Shown: positions 8,700 to 64,000 of the stretch, in pieces
Position numbering within the stretch: the first letter of the stretch is position 1
Layout of the letters: every line of letters begins with the position of its first letter
Assembly: GCA_018061645.1 (NCBI GenBank)
Contig: JAGOTT010000004.1
Location: forward strand, 4,784-68,783
DNA length: 64,000 bases
Reading direction: 5' to 3'
Source of the DNA: Candidatus Moraniibacteriota bacterium
GTDB taxonomy: Bacteria; Patescibacteriota; Minisyncoccia; Moranbacterales; UBA1568
The notes under the pieces: generated by a model
What the model saw: only the letters and a program-made list of their open reading frames with translations
What the model was told of the DNA's origin: nothing
The model's database searches: none
Made by a program: the position numbers and the translations under genes

Positions 8700-9527
8700 C
8701 TACTTCTTGATCCTTCGCTTCACGATGTATTTGCTGCTCGCTTTCTTCGGATTCCTGGTCTTCTTTCCAAGCGCCGGTTTCCCCCACGGAGTCTTCGGAT
8801 GCATACCGAGCGGCTGTCGCCCCTCGCCGCCTCCGTGCGGGTGGTCAACCGGGTTCATCGCGGAGCCTCGGACTGTCGGCCGCTTTCCCTTCCATCGATT
8901 GCGACCGGCCTTCCCGATGCGTTCCGCTCCATGTTCGAAATTGGATACCTGACCGATCGTCGCGTAACATTCCTTGGAAATGAGTCGGACCTCTCCTGAC
9001 GCGAGCTTGACCTGCGCCATCTCACCCTCAAGTGCCATAAGCGTCGCGGATGATCCCGCGCTCCGGACGATTTGCGCGCCGCGGCCGATCTTCATCTCGA
9101 CGCTCGAGATGATCGTTCCCGTCGGGATGTTCTTTATCTTCATCCGATTCCCTTCGGCGACCGGCACAGACTCTCCGGAAACCACATCCTGACCGACTTT
9201 CATACCGCCGGTAGCAACGATATACCGTTTCTCGCCGTCCTTGTAATGAATGAGTGCGATGAGCGCGGAGCGATTCGGATCCCGTTCGATCTGAGCGACC
9301 TTCCCGGGAATATCAAGCTTATCCTGACGGAAATCGACAAGCCGGTACATCCGTTTGTGTCCACCGCCCTGATGCCGGACGGAAATCTTTCCGTTCCCTC
9401 GACCGCCGTTCTTTTTGATCGGTCGAAGCAACGACTTTTCCGAAACCGTCGCCGAAACCTGATCCGGCTTCACGATGGACATGAATCTCCGGCCGGCCGC
9501 GTTCTTTTTGTAGATCTTTATCGCCAT
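8700..9527 (-). CDS. rplB: 50S ribosomal protein L2
   Basis: 275 aa with the GGGEGR...HPHGGG motif. Confidence 0.95.
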   Translation of the reverse strand: MAIKIYKKNAAGRRFMSIVKPDQVSATVSEKSLLRPIKKNGGRGNGKISVRHQGGGHKRMYRLVDFRQDKLDIPGKVAQIERDPNRSALIALIHYKDGEKRYIVATGGMKVGQDVVSGESVPVAEGNRMKIKNIPTGTIISSVEMKIGRGAQIVRSAGSSATLMALEGEMAQVKLASGEVRLISKECYATIGQVSNFEHGAERIGKAGRNRWKGKRPTVRGSAMNPVDHPHGGGEGRQPLGMHPKTPWGKPALGKKTRNPKKASSKYIVKRRIKK

Positions 9528-9538
9528 AACGTTTCGGA

Positions 9539-9910
9539 CTATACTCCTTTAAACATGGGGATTTCCTCGCCTTCCGGAAGCGTCACGATAGCCTTTCGCA
9601 CCGCGGATTTGAATCCGACGGATCTTCCGGAAACTTTTTTCTTCCGAGGAATATTCACCGTTCTGACCTTCTCGACCCGGACGCCATACGCTGTTCCGAC
9701 AGCCCGCTTCACATCGTCCTTTGTCGCGCCGTTCGAAATCCGAAAAACATACTGATTTCGCGCATTGAGAAGATAGGCTTTTTCCGTGACCCGAGACGAA
9801 AGGAGCACCCGACCCGCGAGAGTCTGTGCGGGAAGGGATTCCACCGCTTTCGCGATAGCGGACTTCACGGTCTTTTCATCTTTTTTCTCGAATAACGCCA
9901 TAGGATTCAA
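9539..9910 (-). CDS. rplW: 50S ribosomal protein L23
   Basis: Position between L4 and L2. Its start overlaps the rplD stop by 4 nt. Confidence 0.8.
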   Translation of the reverse strand: MNPMALFEKKDEKTVKSAIAKAVESLPAQTLAGRVLLSSRVTEKAYLLNARNQYVFRISNGATKDDVKRAVGTAYGVRVEKVRTVNIPRKKKVSGRSVGFKSAVRKAIVTLPEGEEIPMFKGV

Positions 9911-45238: not shown

Positions 45239-46123
45239 TTATTTCAGTTTTTTCCAATCGAAGTTCCATGGGTCGGTCTTGCGACCGGGAGCGATATCGT
45301 CGTGCCCAACGACGTATTTCACGCCGTGTTCCCGTTTCAGATAAGCGACGAGATCGTTCACTGCCTCGTACTGCACGGTCGCATACTCGTCGTCTTCGGC
45401 ATTCAGTATCTCGATGCCGATGGAAAATCCGTTCACATTCGTCCGACCGTCAGGCATCTTCGAATTCCCGGCATGATACGCGATATCCTGGTCTTCGACC
45501 AGGCGCAGGATATTCCCCTTCCGATCGATCATATAGTGCGGCGCGACCTCGTAGCTCTTCCAGATATCGATCACTTTGTCGACCGAATACCGGTCACCAC
45601 CCTGATTGTTATACGATGAATGCAGCACGACCGTGTCGATTGTTCGTCCGGGACTCTCGGCGTATCCGAAGGAAACCAAGCGGTCTTTGACCGCGATTTC
45701 GGATTGCGGATCTGGAATCACGGATTTCGAATCCTGCTGGCCGTTGTCTGCTCCCTGTTCCTTGCTCCCTGTTCCTTGCTCCATGGTTTCCGTTGCCTTC
45801 TGTTCGACAAGATCCTTCGCTTCCTTCGCTTTCTCCAACGCCTCCATCCCGACCGAGAGACGATTTTCAGTTGTTCCCTGCTCTTTGTCCCCTATTGATT
45901 GTTGACTGTTATCTGCCGGCTGCTGACTGATTGTTGCCGGATTCTCCACGCTCACACTCGACCCCGAAGAGCCAATGAGAAGATACCCTGTCCCGAGAGC
46001 CATGACTGCCACTGTGATGATGATTCCGAAAAGCCCCATACGGGTAGACGTAGGATTGCAAGATGGAGAACGGAAAGTCGATACATTCATTATACATGAA
46101 ACCCGCATTCCTGCGGGTTTCAT
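45239..46123 (-). CDS. membrane-anchored N-acetylmuramoyl-L-alanine amidase (Amidase_2/PGRP-like)
   Basis: ...VVLHSSYN...YHAGNS...GIEILNAEDD...VVGHDDIAPGRKTDP, plus an N-terminal TM and a Q/E/G-rich linker. Likely start MGLFGIII near 46039. Confidence 0.75.
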   Translation of the reverse strand: MKPAGMRVSCIMNVSTFRSPSCNPTSTRMGLFGIIITVAVMALGTGYLLIGSSGSSVSVENPATISQQPADNSQQSIGDKEQGTTENRLSVGMEALEKAKEAKDLVEQKATETMEQGTGSKEQGADNGQQDSKSVIPDPQSEIAVKDRLVSFGYAESPGRTIDTVVLHSSYNNQGGDRYSVDKVIDIWKSYEVAPHYMIDRKGNILRLVEDQDIAYHAGNSKMPDGRTNVNGFSIGIEILNAEDDEYATVQYEAVNDLVAYLKREHGVKYVVGHDDIAPGRKTDPWNFDWKKLK

Positions 46124-51993: not shown

Positions 51994-52066
51994 AGCGGGT
52001 GATGGGAATCGAACCCACATCTCGACCTTGGAAGGGTCGCATAATAAGCCACTATACTACACCCGC
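51994..52066 (-). tRNA. tRNA-Gly (anticodon TCC)
   Basis: GCGGGTG/CACCCGC acceptor, CGACC-CTTCCAA-GGTCG anticodon arm, GTGGG-TTCGATT-CCCAT T-arm. Confidence 0.8.
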
Positions 52067-52094
52067 ACGCTTGTTCCTTGTCTCCCGTTAACTG

Positions 52095-52857: not shown

Positions 52858-53059
52858 TGGTCGGGGTGCAGGGAATCGAACCCTGTCAACATTCCCTCCG
52901 GAACCGCGACAGCCCCCGGACTGTCGGACGATACCGCCGTCGGGGCACTCGGAATCGAACCGAGACTACCTGCTCCCAAAGCAGACGTACTGCCACTATA
53001 CTATGCCCCGACGCCGCTATCGTCCCCGCGCATGCGTACTACCGGTATACGACACCCCG
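52858..53059 (-). pseudogene. diverged tRNA-Pro(GGG)-like gene split in two, with the tRNA-Pro(TGG) gene between the halves
   Basis: 5' part (53059 down to 53011): CGGGGTG-TC-GTAT-ACCGGTA-GTAC-G-CATGC-GCGGGGA. 3' part (52939 down to 52858): ...CAGGG-TTCGATT-CCCTG-CACCCCG-A-CCA. The acceptor strands are complementary to each other. The arms GGACGATA/TATCGTCC bracket the inner tRNA. Confidence 0.5.
52940..53010 (-). tRNA. tRNA-Pro (anticodon TGG), no encoded CCA
   Basis: CGGGGCA/TGCCCCG acceptor, TCTGC-TTTGGGA-GCAGG anticodon arm, CTCGG-TTCGATT-CCGAG T-arm. Confidence 0.8.
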
Positions 53060-53200
53060 AAATAACATGACTCGGAATCCCTGCCCGCCTTTGGCGGGGA
53101 ACCGAGACTAAATCTCCTTCGGGACCACGACAGTCCCCCGGACTGTCGGATGATGATGCATCATCCCCAAACCACTTGTACTACCACTATACTATGCTCC
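53060..53200 (-). pseudogene. degenerate tRNA-Pro(TGG)-like 5' half followed by GC-rich hairpin insertions and a T-arm-like fragment
   Basis: CGGAGCA-TA-GTAT-AGTGGTA-GTAC-A-AGTGG-TTTGGGG, then ATGATGCATCAT, then CGACAGTCC-GGG-GGACTGTCG, then CTCGG-TTC[CCCGCCAAAGGCGGGCAGG]GATT-CCGAG. There is no matching acceptor 3' strand. Confidence 0.4.
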
Positions 53201-53315
53201 GAGGACCTATCCCAGTCTACCGATATCGGAGGAAAAAGCAATATCCCGCCACCATACGGGAAGCGGGATACGGCCCTATCTTTTTGTCTTGAGCGTCGCT
53301 CGAAACATCCGATAA

Positions 53316-57200: not shown

Positions 57201-57227
57201 AAAAAAACAGGCTTCCACCTGTTTTTT
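57201..57227. terminator. bidirectional terminator between gpmI and clpP
   Basis: AAAAAAACAGG-CTTCCA-CCTGTTTTTT. Confidence 0.8.
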
Positions 57228-57266
57228 CGTTCCCTGCTCCCTGTTCCTTGTTCCTTGTCCCCTGCT

Positions 57267-57851
57267 CTATGAAATTACCTTGTCCACGATTCCGTAGATC
57301 TTCGCCTCGTCCGCCGACATGAAGTAGTCGCGGTCGGTGTCCCTCTCGATCTTCGCGAGTTTTTGTCCGGTGTGCTTGGCGAGCATCCGATTGAGCCGGT
57401 CGCGGGTCTTGAGGATATGTTTGGCATGAATCTCGACTTCCGTCGCCTGTCCCTGGGCTCCTCCCAGCACCTGATGGATCATCACTTCGCTGTTCGGAAG
57501 CGCCATGCGCTTGCCCTTCGCACCCGCCGCAAGCAGCACTGCACCCGCCGAAGCCGCGAGCCCGACGCAGATCGTCGAGACGTCGGCACGGACATACTGC
57601 ATCGTGTCATAGATCGCGAGCGCCGAAGTCACCGACCCGCCGGGCGAGTTGATATACATGCGGATATCCTCCTTCGGACTCTGCGAATCGAGGAAGAGGA
57701 GCTGCGCGATGACGATATTCGCCGCGTCGTCATCGATCGGCGACCCGAGGAAGATGATCCTGTCCTTGAGGAGCCGGGAATAGATATCGTACGACCGCTC
57801 CCCCATGCTCGTCTTCTCGACGACCATCGGGATGAGATAGTTGTTTTGCAT
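57267..57851 (-). CDS. clpP: ATP-dependent Clp protease proteolytic subunit
   Basis: ...[14 protein letters not shown]...MIHQVLGG... Confidence 0.95.
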
Positions 57852-57887: not shown

Positions 57888-57935
57888 TGGGAATCTTTGC
57901 GTTCCTTGTTCCTTGTTCCTTGTTCCTTGTCTCTG

Positions 57936-59929: not shown

Positions 59930-61288
59930 CTATTCCGATTTCTTTTCGGAATCGGCTTCCGGAGATGCTGCCGTCGGTTCAGCCGTTTCCGCAACGGACT
60001 CGGCAGGGACTTCGTCGGCATCGGCAGAGGCTTCCTCCATGGAAACGGCACCGACACCGGCTTCGGTCGCGGAGACGACGTCGATCCGACAGGAAACGAG
60101 TTTCGCGGCGAGACGGACATTCTGTCCGCGCTTGCCGATCGCGAGCGACAGCTGATCGTCCGGGACGACCACCTTCGCGCGCTTCCCGCTTTCGTCATCA
60201 TGTACCAGGACGGAGACGACTTTCGCCGGGCTCATCGCCGCGGTGACGAACTTCTCGAAATCCTCGTTCCACTCGATGATGTCGATCTTCTCGCCGCCGA
60301 GTTCGTCGATCACCGCCTGGACACGGGTGCCTTTCTGTCCGACGCAGGAGCCGATTGGATCGATGCCTTCCTGATTGGTCGAGACGGCGATCTTCGTGCG
60401 TGCTCCCGCCTCGCGGGCGATCGCCTTGATTTCGACGGTTCCCGCGAATATCTCCGGGACCTCGAGCGAGAAGAGATGCCGCACCATGTCCGGATGCGAC
60501 CGTGACAGCACGATACCGGGACCTTTCGGATCCTCCGCGACACGGGAAATGAGGACCTTGATATGCTGACCGGTGCGATAGCTCTCGCCTTCCACCTGCT
60601 CCGACGGAAACAGGATACCGACGGATTTCCCGAGATCGACGAACACGTTGCGCCCCTCGACGCGCTGGACCATGCCGGAAACGACCTCGCCCTCGCGATC
60701 CTTATACTCGTCGTACATGGTCTGCCGTTCCGCCTCGCGGAGCCGCTGGATGATGACCTGCTTCGCGGTCTGTGCCGCCACACGCCCGAAATCCTCGTGC
60801 GGGGGAAGTTTGATCTCGACGATATCGCCGACCTTCGCGCCCTTCTTCCAGAGATTCGCCTCATCGACGGTCAGATCGCGTTCCGGGTTATATCGCGGAA
60901 GCCGATCCTCGTCGACAGCATCTTTCGCCTCATCCTCGATACGGGTCGAACGACGGAACTCCGCCTCCTGCGCCTCGGTTTTCGCCTCCGCGTCCTCGTC
61001 CGTCTCCAGGACGAATTCACGGGTCGTCTCATCGACGACCTCCTTCACGAGAAAATACGCGGCGGTTTTCGTCACCTCGTCGAACTTCGCGTGGATGACC
61101 TGGCTCTTCTTGCCGTAGTCCTTCTTGTATGCGGCGGAGAGGGCGGCTTCCACCACTTCGATCACCTTCTCCTTCGGTAAGCCCTTCTCATCGACGATCT
61201 GCATGATCGCACTTCCGAACTCCCCGAGCCGTCCGGAGAGACTCTCCTGCTCCTCCGGCTTCTCCTCGACTATTTTCCTCTTCGCCAT
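59930..61288 (-). CDS. nusA: transcription termination/antitermination factor NusA, with an acidic insertion and an acidic C-terminal tail
   Basis: S1 domain plus two KH domains (GSCVGQKGTRVQAV..., AIGKRGQNVRLAAKL). Confidence 0.9.
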   Translation of the reverse strand: MAKRKIVEEKPEEQESLSGRLGEFGSAIMQIVDEKGLPKEKVIEVVEAALSAAYKKDYGKKSQVIHAKFDEVTKTAAYFLVKEVVDETTREFVLETDEDAEAKTEAQEAEFRRSTRIEDEAKDAVDEDRLPRYNPERDLTVDEANLWKKGAKVGDIVEIKLPPHEDFGRVAAQTAKQVIIQRLREAERQTMYDEYKDREGEVVSGMVQRVEGRNVFVDLGKSVGILFPSEQVEGESYRTGQHIKVLISRVAEDPKGPGIVLSRSHPDMVRHLFSLEVPEIFAGTVEIKAIAREAGARTKIAVSTNQEGIDPIGSCVGQKGTRVQAVIDELGGEKIDIIEWNEDFEKFVTAAMSPAKVVSVLVHDDESGKRAKVVVPDDQLSLAIGKRGQNVRLAAKLVSCRIDVVSATEAGVGAVSMEEASADADEVPAESVAETAEPTAASPEADSEKKSE

Positions 61289-61621
61289 AAAATGGAAACT
61301 TTAAAATTAAAAAATCAAAGCGAAAAATTCAGGTATCCGCTTTTGGCGGATTCGACAATTTTTCATTTTGAGATTTCAATTTTTCATTAAAAAAGGCCCG
61401 CCATACAAGCGAACCATCCATCACCATCAGAACTGTACCCGTAGTATAGGTGAAAACGGACGAAATGTCAAACACGACTGACTCCAGATAATCAATACTA
61501 TCATCATACGATACCCGCAAAGATAGAACCCTCGCCTCGTAAAACGGAGGTGTTGAAGCCATTGAAAACAAATGGGATATCAAGCATCGGATTCAGTTCT
61601 TTCTAGTTCCCAGACCGCATC

Positions 61622-61669
61622 GATACCGTTAACAAAAGTCTGCGGTCGCAGACTTTTGTTAACGGTATC
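61622..61669. repeat. 48-nt perfect palindrome
   Basis: GATACCGTTAACAAAAGTCTGCG-gt-CGCAGACTTTTGTTAACGGTATC. The right arm recurs at 62381-62403. Confidence 0.8.
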
Positions 61670-61691
61670 CGGATATCCCAAACTAGCAGCG

Positions 61692-62297
61692 TCAGGATTC
61701 GATTCCAAAACGATCCTTCAACTCCCGATCATTCTCTATAGAATCTGCCACGATATACAGCACGTCACGGCCGACATGGAATTCAGTTTTGAGCAGTGAA
61801 ACAAGCTCCTCCGACTCGTACGGCGATACCCAGACGCTGTCTTGCAACCGGATGAACCCGAAACTCGCGATCTCATCGCGCCAACGATCACGTGCATATC
61901 GGCGGGTTTCCTGTATATCAAATATGACTAACCGCCACTTGCCGTCCCATCGTTTTTTCTTGAGAGCATTTTCCTTCAGACGATATTTGAGAAGCTGCCT
62001 CTCCCCTGCTTCCGTCAATCGGTAAAATATCTTCCCATTCTCATGAACCGTTTCCACAAACCCCTTCTTTTTGAGCCGTCCGATAGCGGTTTTTGCATAG
62101 CTCCGATATCCGCGTTCTTCGTCTTTCGTCATTACATACAGCTTACCGATCGCTCCGATGACATTCGGCGCCACCAAAGCAGACGCAAGTAATCCGGCTC
62201 CAGCGACACCGAAAAGCAGCATCTTCTGTATTTCAAGACGTCTTTCTTTCTTTTCCGAAAGCGAATCAGCTTCGGCAAACTCCATATTCTCTTCCAT
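61692..62297 (-). CDS. PaaX-C-like domain protein with an N-terminal TM segment (putative regulator)
   Basis: ...WDGKWRLVIFDIQETRRYARDRWRDEIASFGFIRLQDSVWVSPY. GC is about 50%, against about 60% in the neighbouring genes. Confidence 0.45.
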   Translation of the reverse strand: MEENMEFAEADSLSEKKERRLEIQKMLLFGVAGAGLLASALVAPNVIGAIGKLYVMTKDEERGYRSYAKTAIGRLKKKGFVETVHENGKIFYRLTEAGERQLLKYRLKENALKKKRWDGKWRLVIFDIQETRRYARDRWRDEIASFGFIRLQDSVWVSPYESEELVSLLKTEFHVGRDVLYIVADSIENDRELKDRFGIES

Positions 62298-62380
62298 ACA
62301 AAATTCGTCTCAACCCAGAATTTTAAAGATTTTCCAAATATAATATCCACATTCTCCAACCGCAAACAATATACCACGAC

Positions 62381-62403
62381 CGCAGACTTTTGTTAACGGT
62401 ATC
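62381..62403. repeat. 23-nt direct repeat copy of the palindrome arm
   Basis: CGCAGACTTTTGTTAACGGTATC, identical to 61647-61669. Confidence 0.8.
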
Positions 62404-62519
62404 GATATTTTAGCTTTATAAAAGGGAAATTTTGTGATTCTTTCTGAATTATTTTTTTCTTTACTTGAGCCATTTTCCTGAAATATGGCTTTATGAAGCT
62501 ATTATTCGGTTACTGATAT

Positions 62520-62548
62520 TTGACTTTTCCGTAAAAATATGCTATACT
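62520..62548 (+). promoter_or_regulatory. near-consensus sigma70 promoter in an AT-rich tract
   Basis: TTGACT, a 17-nt spacer, then TATACT. An ~80-nt leader with a GCCCG...CGGGC stem follows, then AGGAGAAAAACC-ATG. Confidence 0.6.
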
Positions 62549-62630
62549 GTACCGTTATGGATTAAGGAGCCCGCTAGGCACCACCCATGACGGGCACATT
62601 GAAAATTTTATAGACCACAGGAGAAAAACC

Positions 62631-63542
62631 ATGTTCAAATGGCTGAATGACATACATTTCATGTCGCTGCTTGATCTGTTCCAGATGCTTGGGAGCAAAT
62701 TAGGAAAAGCGACGACAGAAGAGAAGAAGGCGGATGGATCCGATTCGGCAAAAACCGATAAAGACCTCCCGACAAACCTCTTCACCGAGAAGTTCACGCA
62801 AGTGGACAATTCGTACTGGGAATATATTCTCTCACTGCTTCCTCTCGATGTCTACAAGACCGTCCGGAAGCTTACCGACCGGATGAGCGAGAAAGACAAA
62901 GCCGACGAAGGAAGCCGCGCCGACTCGTTCCGCATCGGGACACTCCTCATGCCGAACAAGATCACCGAAGAGGTGATCGAGAAAACCGTCCCCGGACAAC
63001 AGGGACAGGGAGGCAAGGGCGGCGGCGCGAAAAAGGAAACGACGACCAAGAGAACCGACACCCGGTTTGATCCGGACAAGGATTCGCGGATCCTGTATCT
63101 GACACGCCTCCATGAAGTCACCATCGATCTCATAGGTGCGGGACAAACCGAAGCCGATGTTATTGATTCGGTCATCGACCATCTCGAAAAAAGTGGCTTC
63201 CTTTCGACGGACTCGCTCAAACGGAAGGCCGAGGAGTTGTTCGGCAAAGGGAAAGAGTTGGCGAAAGAGGTTTCCCACAAAGCCAAGCTCGCGTCGTATC
63301 ATTTGTTCCTTGGGAACGAATACGACGAGGTAGTTCGCGGACGGGATACAGGCAAACCCGACAAGGATCTCGAAAAAGATCTCTCGGATGCGCTCGTTTC
63401 CAAGACCGCCCGCGACCGTCGCGAGCTGAAACAAGCGAAACGGGATCGCATCCTGCACGCCAAACCGAAAGCACTCGGCATCATCATCGGCCTCATGGCG
63501 GCGATGATCGCCGCCATGAGTCTCATTCAGTTCTTGAAATAG
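62631..63542 (+). CDS. hypothetical Lys/Glu/Asp-rich tail-anchored membrane protein
   Basis: 303 aa, hydrophilic, with a C-terminal TM (ALGIIIGLMAAMIAAMSLIQFL). Strong SD and promoter. Confidence 0.55.
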   Translation: MFKWLNDIHFMSLLDLFQMLGSKLGKATTEEKKADGSDSAKTDKDLPTNLFTEKFTQVDNSYWEYILSLLPLDVYKTVRKLTDRMSEKDKADEGSRADSFRIGTLLMPNKITEEVIEKTVPGQQGQGGKGGGAKKETTTKRTDTRFDPDKDSRILYLTRLHEVTIDLIGAGQTEADVIDSVIDHLEKSGFLSTDSLKRKAEELFGKGKELAKEVSHKAKLASYHLFLGNEYDEVVRGRDTGKPDKDLEKDLSDALVSKTARDRRELKQAKRDRILHAKPKALGIIIGLMAAMIAAMSLIQFLK

Positions 63543-63552
63543 GAGAAAGAAA

Positions 63553-64000
63553 ATGAGCTTCGTGACAGCAGCGACAACCCAGGCTGAAAAGGCGCTGGAG
63601 TGGGCAAACAAGTGGCACCAGACCGTCGTCCTCTGGACGATCGTCGGTGGCACCTTCGTCGTCATGCTCGGGGTCTTCGCCAATCTGGTCGGATTCCCCG
63701 GGTTCAACTTCATCCTTGCCACGGTCGCACTGCTCGCCGGGATATTCTTCCTGACGAAACCGGTGATCGTCCTCTCGGTGTTCGGTATCGGTTCGCTTAC
63801 AAGCGGCCTGCCGAACTTCAAAACCAGCGACGTCCTCACTAAGGGCTTCGCCGGACTGCCCGACTTCGAACTCAAGAAATTCCTCGGAGCCGGATGGGCG
63901 GCGATCGAAGCGACCGCTCACCAAGTCGCGCATGTGTTTTTCTTCCTAACGGTACTCTTCGTCGTCCTGGGCACGTTCCCGATAAGCGACCCGACGCTGG
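63553..64000 (+). CDS. hypothetical polytopic membrane protein (runs off the window end)
   Basis: AGGAGAAAGAAA-ATG at 63553. The protein begins MSFVTAATTQAEKALEWANKWHQTVVLWTIVGG... with multiple TM helices. Confidence 0.5.
   Translation, partial: MSFVTAATTQAEKALEWANKWHQTVVLWTIVGGTFVVMLGVFANLVGFPGFNFILATVALLAGIFFLTKPVIVLSVFGIGSLTSGLPNFKTSDVLTKGFAGLPDFELKKFLGAGWAAIEATAHQVAHVFFFLTVLFVVLGTFPISDPTL

Follow-up and report, generated by a model that had tools for sequence, protein, structure and literature searches.

The window analysed here is a 64,000-nt stretch from a metagenome-assembled genome (MAG) of Candidatus Moranbacteria, and all coordinates count from its start. Between nusA and a gene for a 303-aa protein it carries a small gene on the minus strand (61692-62297), which codes for a 201-aa protein related to the regulator PaaX and to Cas2. 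We found that this gene lies between two copies of a long palindrome, one holding its own promoter and one just past its stop codon. The repeats are best read, from the comparison of sequences, as the standard paired palindromic sites that flank nearly every gene of a widespread family of small PaaX/Cas2-like proteins. With somewhat better than even confidence, we suggest that the protein is an autorepressor, with a long operator like that of PaaX and an auxiliary operator downstream of the gene.

The 23-mer CGCAGACTTTTGTTAACGGTATC occurs exactly three times in the window, at 61622-61644 (minus strand), 61647-61669 (plus strand) and 62381-62403 (plus strand), even when three mismatches are allowed; zero copies would be expected by chance. 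An earlier, sequence-only reading of this DNA had described identical 23-nt direct repeats on either side of the gene, and a perfect 48-nt palindrome formed by the repeat at the nusA-proximal end. The direct repeats are exact copies, and the palindrome is perfect except at its centre. The two left-hand copies are its 23-nt arms, which are 100% complementary and enclose a 2-nt centre, GT, that is not self-complementary. This element (61622-61669) begins 22 nt past the stop codon of the PaaX-like gene, has the core ACCGTTAACAA-N7-CGGTCG-N7-TTGTTAACGGT, and is the sole palindrome of its size in the window with 20 of 20 arm positions matched. We refer to it as the downstream site. What the sequence-only reading overlooked is that the whole palindrome recurs in degenerate form at 62359-62406, with 80% direct and 85% inverted identity to the first, and that the right-hand copy of the 23-mer makes up half of it. 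We call this second element the upstream site.

The upstream site holds the promoter of the PaaX-like gene itself. On the minus strand, a -35 box, TTAACA (62396-62391), is followed by a 17-nt spacer and a TG-extended -10 box, TATATT (62373-62368), together a 10/12 match. These boxes lie about 65-75 nt ahead of the ATG, which makes the gene in the window a leadered variant of the family. The embedded promoter recurs in two related loci, L015 (GTTAACA-N17-TATATT) and L017, in both of which the orthologous downstream sites hold the equivalent position. A search of the window for the half-site returned the three copies given above and no others. Beyond the window, a 21-mer of the repeat gave 0 matches in the GTDB species-representative genomes, and the degenerate palindrome CCGTTRACAA-N7-CGGTCG-N7-TTGTYAACGG gave 0 matches in the JGI metagenomes. 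An Rfam search of the region (E<=1) returned chance-level matches only, namely mir-580 on the palindrome and the ylbH leader (E = 0.32).

The same arrangement recurs throughout the family. A scan of species-representative genomes confirmed at least 559 relatives among 599 pattern matches, and 80 loci were fetched, nearly all labelled as MAGs of the Candidate Phyla Radiation (CPR)/Patescibacteria, with a few labelled as other taxa and with several copies in some genomes. The set analysed consisted of 80 non-redundant loci (78 of those fetched, plus L015 and L021), mostly from different species, a few genomes giving two or three. When the region around the start of each gene was compared with the region past its stop codon, the best 36-nt match reached at least 24 of 36 positions in 75 of the 80 loci; in 147 of 148 controls it was 23 or less. 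Palindromes with at least 15 of 20 arm matches were found at 2.07 per kb around the ends of the genes, against 0.17 per kb elsewhere. Typically, a locus-specific palindrome of about 40 bp covers the promoter or the start codon, and a matching copy lies 0-100 nt past the stop codon. The arms are specific to each locus, so that two paralogues from one genome (L087 and L088) have different arms, and few centres are used across the family (CTATAG, CGGTCG/CGACCG and CGATCG). The family genes are monocistronic, their neighbours are unrelated housekeeping genes, and the strand of the downstream neighbour is divided 40 to 36. We found no conserved neighbour or regulated target, the commonest neighbour being a NUDIX gene (7 of 147). 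Extra cognate sites are rare within +/-4 kb of the other family loci; they occur upstream in L017 and L087.

By BLASTP, the products of the orthologous genes in L015 and L017 are 75% and 71% identical to that of the window gene, and both genes occupy the slot between nusA and the 303/306-aa gene. A relative with 61% identity, a paralogue, lies in L021, in an unrelated context. All three loci have 3-4 copies each of a related palindrome of about 40 nt, one on the promoter and another shortly after the stop codon. The three loci share the centre CGGTCG, whereas the outer arms differ in L021 (CTTCAC...GTGAA versus GTTrACA...TGTyAAC). The surroundings of the L021 gene (1-11943) include genes for an integrase, a LysM/CHAP hydrolase, an Avd-like and a PrgI-like protein and proteins of 704 and 424 aa of no recognised kind, and may represent an integrated conjugative or type IV secretion system (T4SS)-like element.

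The sites have an internal structure. Outward from the centre, offsets 2-4 and 11-18 are highly symmetrical, whereas symmetry is only 0.61-0.65 at offsets 6-9 and random beyond 20. The site is tripartite: a conserved centre is enclosed by a pair of 8-bp half-sites that lie about 29 bp apart, and the dip in symmetry in the middle of the arms fits protein contacts better than a uniformly paired hairpin. Among the upstream copies, 16 loci have a -10-like hexamer that starts at +5; an in-frame ATG is placed at +17 in 22 loci, and 32 of 70 have one somewhere from +12 to +24. In such loci the site takes in promoter, predicted transcription start and start codon alike, and many members of the family are probably leaderless. 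Half-site identity climbs with the identity of the winged helix, from 0.33 to 0.72 (Mantel r = 0.32; 0/2000 permutations). The region of the winged helix has a mean identity of 31%, as compared with 57% for the Cas2-like domain, so that a variable winged helix joined to a conserved Cas2-like domain parallels variable arms around a conserved centre.

The 201-aa protein is a truncated and modified relative of PaaX. It consists of a tail rich in lysine and arginine (K/R), a hydrophobic helix (about residues 26-44; the segment comprises 19 residues with a mean Kyte-Doolittle hydropathy of 2.1), a winged helix and a Cas2-like PaaX_M domain. In overlapping contigs, gene callers favour an alternative start at 62285, which gives 197 aa. 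The protein matched PF20803 (PaaX_M, the Cas2-like middle domain of PaaX) with 70.4 bits, for a cut-off of 24. The match to the PaaX-type winged helix, PF07848, was weak (16.3 bits, below the cut-off of 24.8). The effector-binding PaaX_C domain gave no match, and the protein ends at residue 201. The gene had been called PaaX-C-like in the sequence-only reading; the kinship with PaaX stands, but the domain present is the middle, Cas2-like one. Among the NCBIfam models, the PaaX equivalog TIGR02277 failed its cut-off (53.4 bits for 264.55), and TIGR01573 (cas2) narrowly passed (27.8 bits for 24.5); the Pfam family PF09827 remained under its cut-off (19.4 bits for 23.8). An AlphaFold2 model with a predicted local distance difference test (pLDDT) score of 80.5, and above 90 over most of residues 61-200, shows a winged helix (about residues 58-106) followed by a ferredoxin-like domain. 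Foldseek placed PaaX (8a39) and Rv0674 first among the folds similar to this model, then many Cas2 structures, with VapD listed too. In the Protein Data Bank (PDB), a profile built from 40 family members retrieved E. coli PaaX (8a39) and Rv0674 (3kfw), and it aligns to the wing region of 8a39.

NCBI names the protein "CRISPR-associated endonuclease Cas2", probably because it passes the TIGR01573 cut-off. The name is almost certainly a mis-annotation. A search for interspaced repeats found no CRISPR array in the 64-kb window, and the neighbours of the gene there are nusA and membrane or pilin genes. Cas1 is absent from the 25 most frequent Pfam families of the 147 neighbours of family genes (the open reading frames (ORFs) of the window were not scanned for cas1), and the same 25 include no paa family. 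The mis-annotation is likely to be systematic, the family being so named in MAGs in which no CRISPR context was seen here.

PaaX binds TGATTC(N27)GAATCA and, by blocking RNA polymerase, represses transcription from its own promoter (PMC9493321). PaaX is a repressor of the paa operons that responds to phenylacetyl-CoA; the PaaX proteins (E. coli W, 8a39; Rv0674, 3kfw; Jannaschia, 3l09) are the best match to the window protein in both sequence and fold, with a winged helix followed by a Cas2-like domain. The likeness extends to the DNA: the outer half-sites are about three helical turns apart in the two systems (TGATTC-N27-GAATCA, and 8-bp half-sites about 29 bp apart here) and, at the sequence level, a palindrome of 42-48 bp lies over the regulator's own promoter, with the -35 and -10 boxes inside. 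Unlike PaaX, which has about 305-316 aa, the window protein has only 201 aa and no PaaX_C domain, and its K/R tail and hydrophobic helix have no equivalent in PaaX. Moreover, a Cas2-type aspartate in an FDI motif (D127), invariant in the family, stands where PaaX has LLLSEG, there are no paa genes nearby, and the conserved centre of the sites and their second copy past the stop codon are features of the present family. With Cas2, a CRISPR adaptation protein, and VapD, a toxin of the Cas2 fold, the protein shares the ferredoxin-like fold (Foldseek probability up to 0.99 to Cas2 5zyf; VapD 6zi1 is listed) and, with Cas2, the invariant aspartate at the end of strand 1; in contrast to Cas2, the domain is fused here to a winged helix and an N-terminal hydrophobic helix. 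In the lac (O1/O2) and gal (OE/OI) systems, a main operator on the promoter is accompanied by a second operator several hundred bp downstream. A promoter operator with a second cognate site downstream is also what we observe, but the second site is found here directly after the stop codon of the gene itself, comes close to the first in strength or is more perfect than it, and shows no helical phasing. Tetramers of the window protein are hypothetical.

In the mechanism that we propose, the protein would dimerise via its conserved Cas2-like domain, seated over the conserved centre of the site (CGGTCG here), and its two variable winged helices would read the 8-bp half-sites, which are specific to the locus (GTTAACAA here) and lie about 29 bp apart. 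Because the upstream site contains the -35 and -10 boxes of the gene, its occupancy would shut off the gene's own transcription. The site past the stop codon would serve as an auxiliary operator, and may act by looping the gene, of about 0.65-0.73 kb, or by blocking polymerases that read through.

Several observations weigh against autorepression. In 36 of 40 members there is more K/R on the N-terminal than on the C-terminal side of the hydrophobic segment, and the positive-inside rule, applied as a simple charge count, predicts that the DNA-binding part lies outside the cytoplasm (N-in/C-out), in conflict with the role of a repressor. A second site past the stop codon is atypical of autorepressors, and it is present whatever lies downstream. 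The distance between the upstream and downstream sites, with a median of 658 bp (n=49), shows no significant helical periodicity, although the absence of phasing neither favours nor excludes looping. Many copies are perfect palindromes, and several of the downstream ones match at 20/20 positions, which is beyond the needs of protein contacts alone. The co-variation of half-sites and winged helices could partly reflect the shared descent of gene and sites. Finally, L049 has a third cognate palindrome (1282-1317), 2.7 kb from the PaaX-like gene and not in a promoter position; it sits between the convergent ends of gatB and of a 77-aa ORF coding for a MerR/excisionase-like product. Two puzzles stand out: the second site past every gene's stop codon, and a protein with a predicted N-in/C-out topology that would act on its own promoter.

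In a more novel reading, the family would consist not of ordinary autorepressors but of membrane-anchored, sequence-specific DNA-binding (and perhaps DNA-cutting) proteins, each with its gene tagged on both sides by a private 40-bp palindrome that the protein recognises. We regard this as unlikely. If true, a unit that marks itself in this way might anchor its locus at the membrane, bias the uptake or retention of the DNA that carries it, or mobilise itself via the Cas2-like domain, and ultra-small bacteria would have a type of self-recognising genetic element that has so far gone unnoticed.

We think it rather improbable that the unit is, or was, a selfish mobile cassette, with the palindromes as its recombination or transposition ends, whose hairpins or cruciforms would be cut by the Cas2-like nuclease domain, in the manner of REP/RAYT or IS200/IS605 ends or of modules bracketed by recombination sites. 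In REP/RAYT and IS200/IS605 too, a gene is flanked by hairpin-forming palindromes that are thought to be recognised by its protein. The stand-alone gene, with unrelated neighbours and no preferred neighbour strand, is in line with mobility, as are the occurrence of several paralogues in a genome, the many perfect 40-nt palindromes, the invariance of D127, and a central dinucleotide (GT/AC) that is flipped between the two copies in several loci. So is the patchy presence of the gene at the nusA site, even between relatives with 97% NusA identity. However, all pairs of family members with at least 80% identity share their flanks, and only older pairs, with 62-78% identity, are found in different contexts; there is no recently moved copy and, as far as such comparisons tell, no sign of recent transposition. 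Neither a solo palindrome nor a clean excision scar is seen at sites without the gene. The sites are private to each locus instead of being dispersed in the genome, and neither Pfam nor NCBIfam detected an HUH/Y1, transposase or recombinase domain in the 201-aa protein. The relaxed symmetry in mid-arm is unlike a structural hairpin, and the upstream copy is precisely fitted to promoter and start codon.

A role at the level of RNA, in which the downstream copy would be a 3'-end hairpin (a terminator or stabiliser) and the likeness of the upstream copy a by-product, appears improbable. The downstream copy in the window, close behind the stop codon, can form as RNA a 22-bp stem of -42.6 kcal/mol (z = -8.1), and the extra site in L049 lies between convergent gene ends. 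Against this, a terminator scan found no intrinsic terminator at 61622-61669, where no T-run follows the palindrome, and across the family a T-run follows the downstream copy in 12 of 64 loci. The stems are often AT-rich, and their symmetry is relaxed in mid-arm. An RNA hairpin would also leave unexplained both the presence of the same locus-specific sequence at the promoter in 75 of 80 loci and the manner in which half-sites track the winged helix.

Very improbable, in our view, is that the protein serves as a sequence-specific DNA receptor or nuclease, anchored in the membrane and exposed at the surface, with a topology like that of the competence protein ComEA or of NucA, its gene being tagged on both sides by the sequence that the protein recognises, for example so that uptake of, or tethering to, such DNA is favoured. 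The N-in/C-out topology given by the positive-inside rule in 36 of 40 members would suit such a receptor, as would the private specificities of paralogues, the absence of any other cognate half-site from the 64-kb window and the scarcity of such sites within +/-4 kb at other loci. CPR bacteria, in addition, rely on scavenged DNA and nucleotides. However, the way in which the upstream site is arranged about the -10 box and the start codon speaks for transcriptional control inside the cell. Furthermore, the topology is derived from a simple count of charges, we found neither a signal-peptidase site nor a secretion partner, and no competence gene was associated with the family among the 147 neighbours.

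The proposal of the sequence-only reading, that 61600-64000 is a horizontally acquired cassette of lower GC bounded by the repeats, finds some accord in the lowered GC at 61250-62750 and in a mosaic 303-aa gene that is highly divergent between close relatives, but is scarcely tenable given that six lineages have kept the gene order and both promoters and that the repeats, a family hallmark, bracket the 201-aa gene alone. In six related lineages the order is ClpP-Tig-PPase-NusA, then, divergently oriented, a gene for 277-306 aa and one for a membrane protein of 371-405 aa, followed by genes of the T4SS_pilin family (PF18895) on the opposite strand. The pilin genes are seen where the relative's contig reaches that far, SBP and methyltransferase genes come next where contig or gene order shows them, and DUF4446, IF2 and CCA-enzyme genes come after in the two longest loci, L010 and L011. 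Among the relatives, the two divergent promoters and their leaders, those of nusA and of the 303-aa gene, show almost no base changes. The promoter and the 303-aa and membrane-protein genes that adjoin the unit are thus conserved residents, and what proves to be a variable hot spot is the spacer between the two divergent promoters, and only this. In the window, L015 and L017 it holds the PaaX-like unit (about 960 bp in the window); in L011 it contains nothing recognisable (about 70 bp), in L009 a hairpin-rich element bounded by inverted repeats (about 220 bp), and in L010 a larger form of the L009 element (about 435 bp). The best explanation of the region is two divergent, conserved promoters of housekeeping type and a variable spacer with one self-contained regulator unit, and it is into these that the apparent island resolves.

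The PaaX-like gene is thus present in the window, L015 and L017, and absent from L009, L010 and L011. Set against NusA identity, this distribution is patchy: NusA is 97% identical between L010, which lacks the gene, and L015, which has it, is 92-93% identical to both in the window, and is 69-73% identical in L017, which has the gene. Its patchy presence, together with orthologues of 71-75% identity in one slot, favours, over a recent gain, an old resident that would have been lost or replaced several times. The hairpin-rich element of the gene-less relatives (L010, about 9405-9790; L009, about 1478-1615; inverted repeats CCCCGGACTTCCCTCCC ... GGGAGGGAAGTCCGGGG) may be a miniature inverted-repeat transposable element (MITE)-like element or a structured RNA; an Rfam search of L009 and L010 matched tRNAs only, and nothing in the spacer element.

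Base composition agrees with this division of the region. With a GC of 0.484, the PaaX-like gene is the lowest of the 61 ORFs in the window (z = -2.7; the gene mean is 0.559), as the sequence-only reading would lead one to expect. The gene is, however, also about 2-5 points under the GC of its locus in L015, L017 and L021, compared with about 7 in the window, and the recurrence of low GC across lineages makes it a property of the gene and not a mark of recent arrival. The low-GC tract which that reading had noted upstream of the gene is real (0.35 over the 300 nt at 62300-62599), and the low GC of the region is mostly in intergenic promoter DNA. The genes beyond it are close to the gene average, the 303-aa gene at 0.53 (0.555 after its first 240 nt) and the N-terminal part of the 396-aa gene at 0.59.

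The family bears on regulation in CPR/Patescibacteria, in which few regulators are recognisable; its members were found in at least 559 stretches of species-representative genomes, and a genome often has several of them. Its cis-sites can be read locus by locus, from the conserved centre, the private half-sites and the embedded start codon, and they make a ready set of protein-DNA specificity pairs for asking how a winged helix on a Cas2-like scaffold reads DNA. A gene that brackets itself with a private pair of palindromes, in which the centre is conserved and the start codon embedded, appears to be undescribed in the searchable literature, which is incomplete; within the same limits, we found nothing relevant on PaaX in connection with Cas2 or CPR.

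On the nusA side of the spacer, the promoter TTGACA-17-TATACT (61471-61443, minus strand; 11/12 match) is kept in all relatives. So is a terminator-like site in the leader, formed by a hairpin (61415-61395) and a run of six T (61415-61386 in all, minus strand), and the leader looks like a transcription attenuator, possibly one through which NusA regulates itself. A second hairpin (61355-61334) lies ahead of the nusA start codon in the lineage of the window. No rimP gene is found between nusA and the next gene, where there are two small ORFs without a Pfam match; rimP had been reported as missing upstream of nusA, which is true but is common to all relatives. In L010 (16332-18798) and L011 (16603-18932), infB lies beyond the pilin/SBP block on the opposite strand, so that the usual linkage of nusA and infB is broken; in L010 it is split into two ORFs.

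On the other side, a promoter of sigma-70 type, TTGACT-17-TATACT with a TG element (62520-62548, plus strand), drives the pair of genes for the 303-aa and 396-aa proteins, and is nearly identical in L009, L010, L011, L015 and L017. It is followed by a leader hairpin (62552-62593, plus strand) with a 9-bp helix, CCGUUAUGG/CCAUGACGG, around a small inner stem. Promoter and structured leader are as the sequence-only reading had described them, and so are the charged protein with its C-terminal transmembrane anchor and the polytopic membrane protein that follows. The 9-bp helix is kept in 6/6 relatives, with one compensatory pair and several G-U/A-U switches, and the hairpin folds with -19.2 kcal/mol (z = -2.3) and belongs to no Rfam family; conservation of the leader structure is modestly supported.

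The 303-aa protein (62631-63542, plus strand) is tail-anchored, charged and mostly helical. Its family is narrow, with 25 representatives at E<=1e-3 among 1.84 billion, and is marked by the motifs LPxxLxTEKFT, RDxxDxGxRVxSFRxGxLxMPN and DxRFTxxDxRVxYL and by a C-terminal transmembrane helix. It evolves fast and is mosaic, with 19-70% identity among close relatives: between the window and L015 the protein is 19% identical although NusA is 93% identical, and between the window and L010 it is 44% identical overall, the C-terminal residues (about 56) being identical and the part before them showing little similarity. Apart from one beta hairpin, a structural model (pLDDT 77) is helical and includes a long terminal helix; no fold in the PDB matched it, and the sequence matched no Pfam or NCBIfam family. 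Near the end of the gene, in the part coding for the transmembrane helix, there is a perfect 29-nt palindrome, CTCATGGCGGCGAT-G-ATCGCCGCCATGAG (63486-63526), about 20 nt before the stop codon and about 30 nt before the next start codon. The 91-nt stretch around it folds with -33.7 kcal/mol (z = -3.4), and the palindrome falls downstream of the mosaic breakpoint, within the roughly 56 codons whose translation is identical to that of L010.

The polytopic membrane protein of 396 aa starts at 63553 (plus strand) and runs off the window at 64000, after its first 149 codons; it is complete in the overlapping contigs L001 and L002, has 371-405 aa in all relatives, and gave no match in Pfam or NCBIfam. 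Neither protein of the pair showed homology to VirB, Trb or Prg proteins in these databases, and their sole link to a T4SS is the adjoining PF18895 genes. The constant adjacency of the pair to this pilin block hints at a possible role at the cell surface.

Two further sets of repeats were noted elsewhere in the window. A 36-nt heptad repeat lies on either side of clpP (57267-57851), at 57224-57259 and 57896-57931, and reads (CCTTGTT)n on the plus strand and (AACAAGG)n on the strand of the gene; further copies are found near 45.8 kb (45738-45903). At 52048-52070 and 52975-53202, a unit of about 37 nt with a -10-like core, GCCACTATACTA, is present in 3-4 copies within 1.2 kb.

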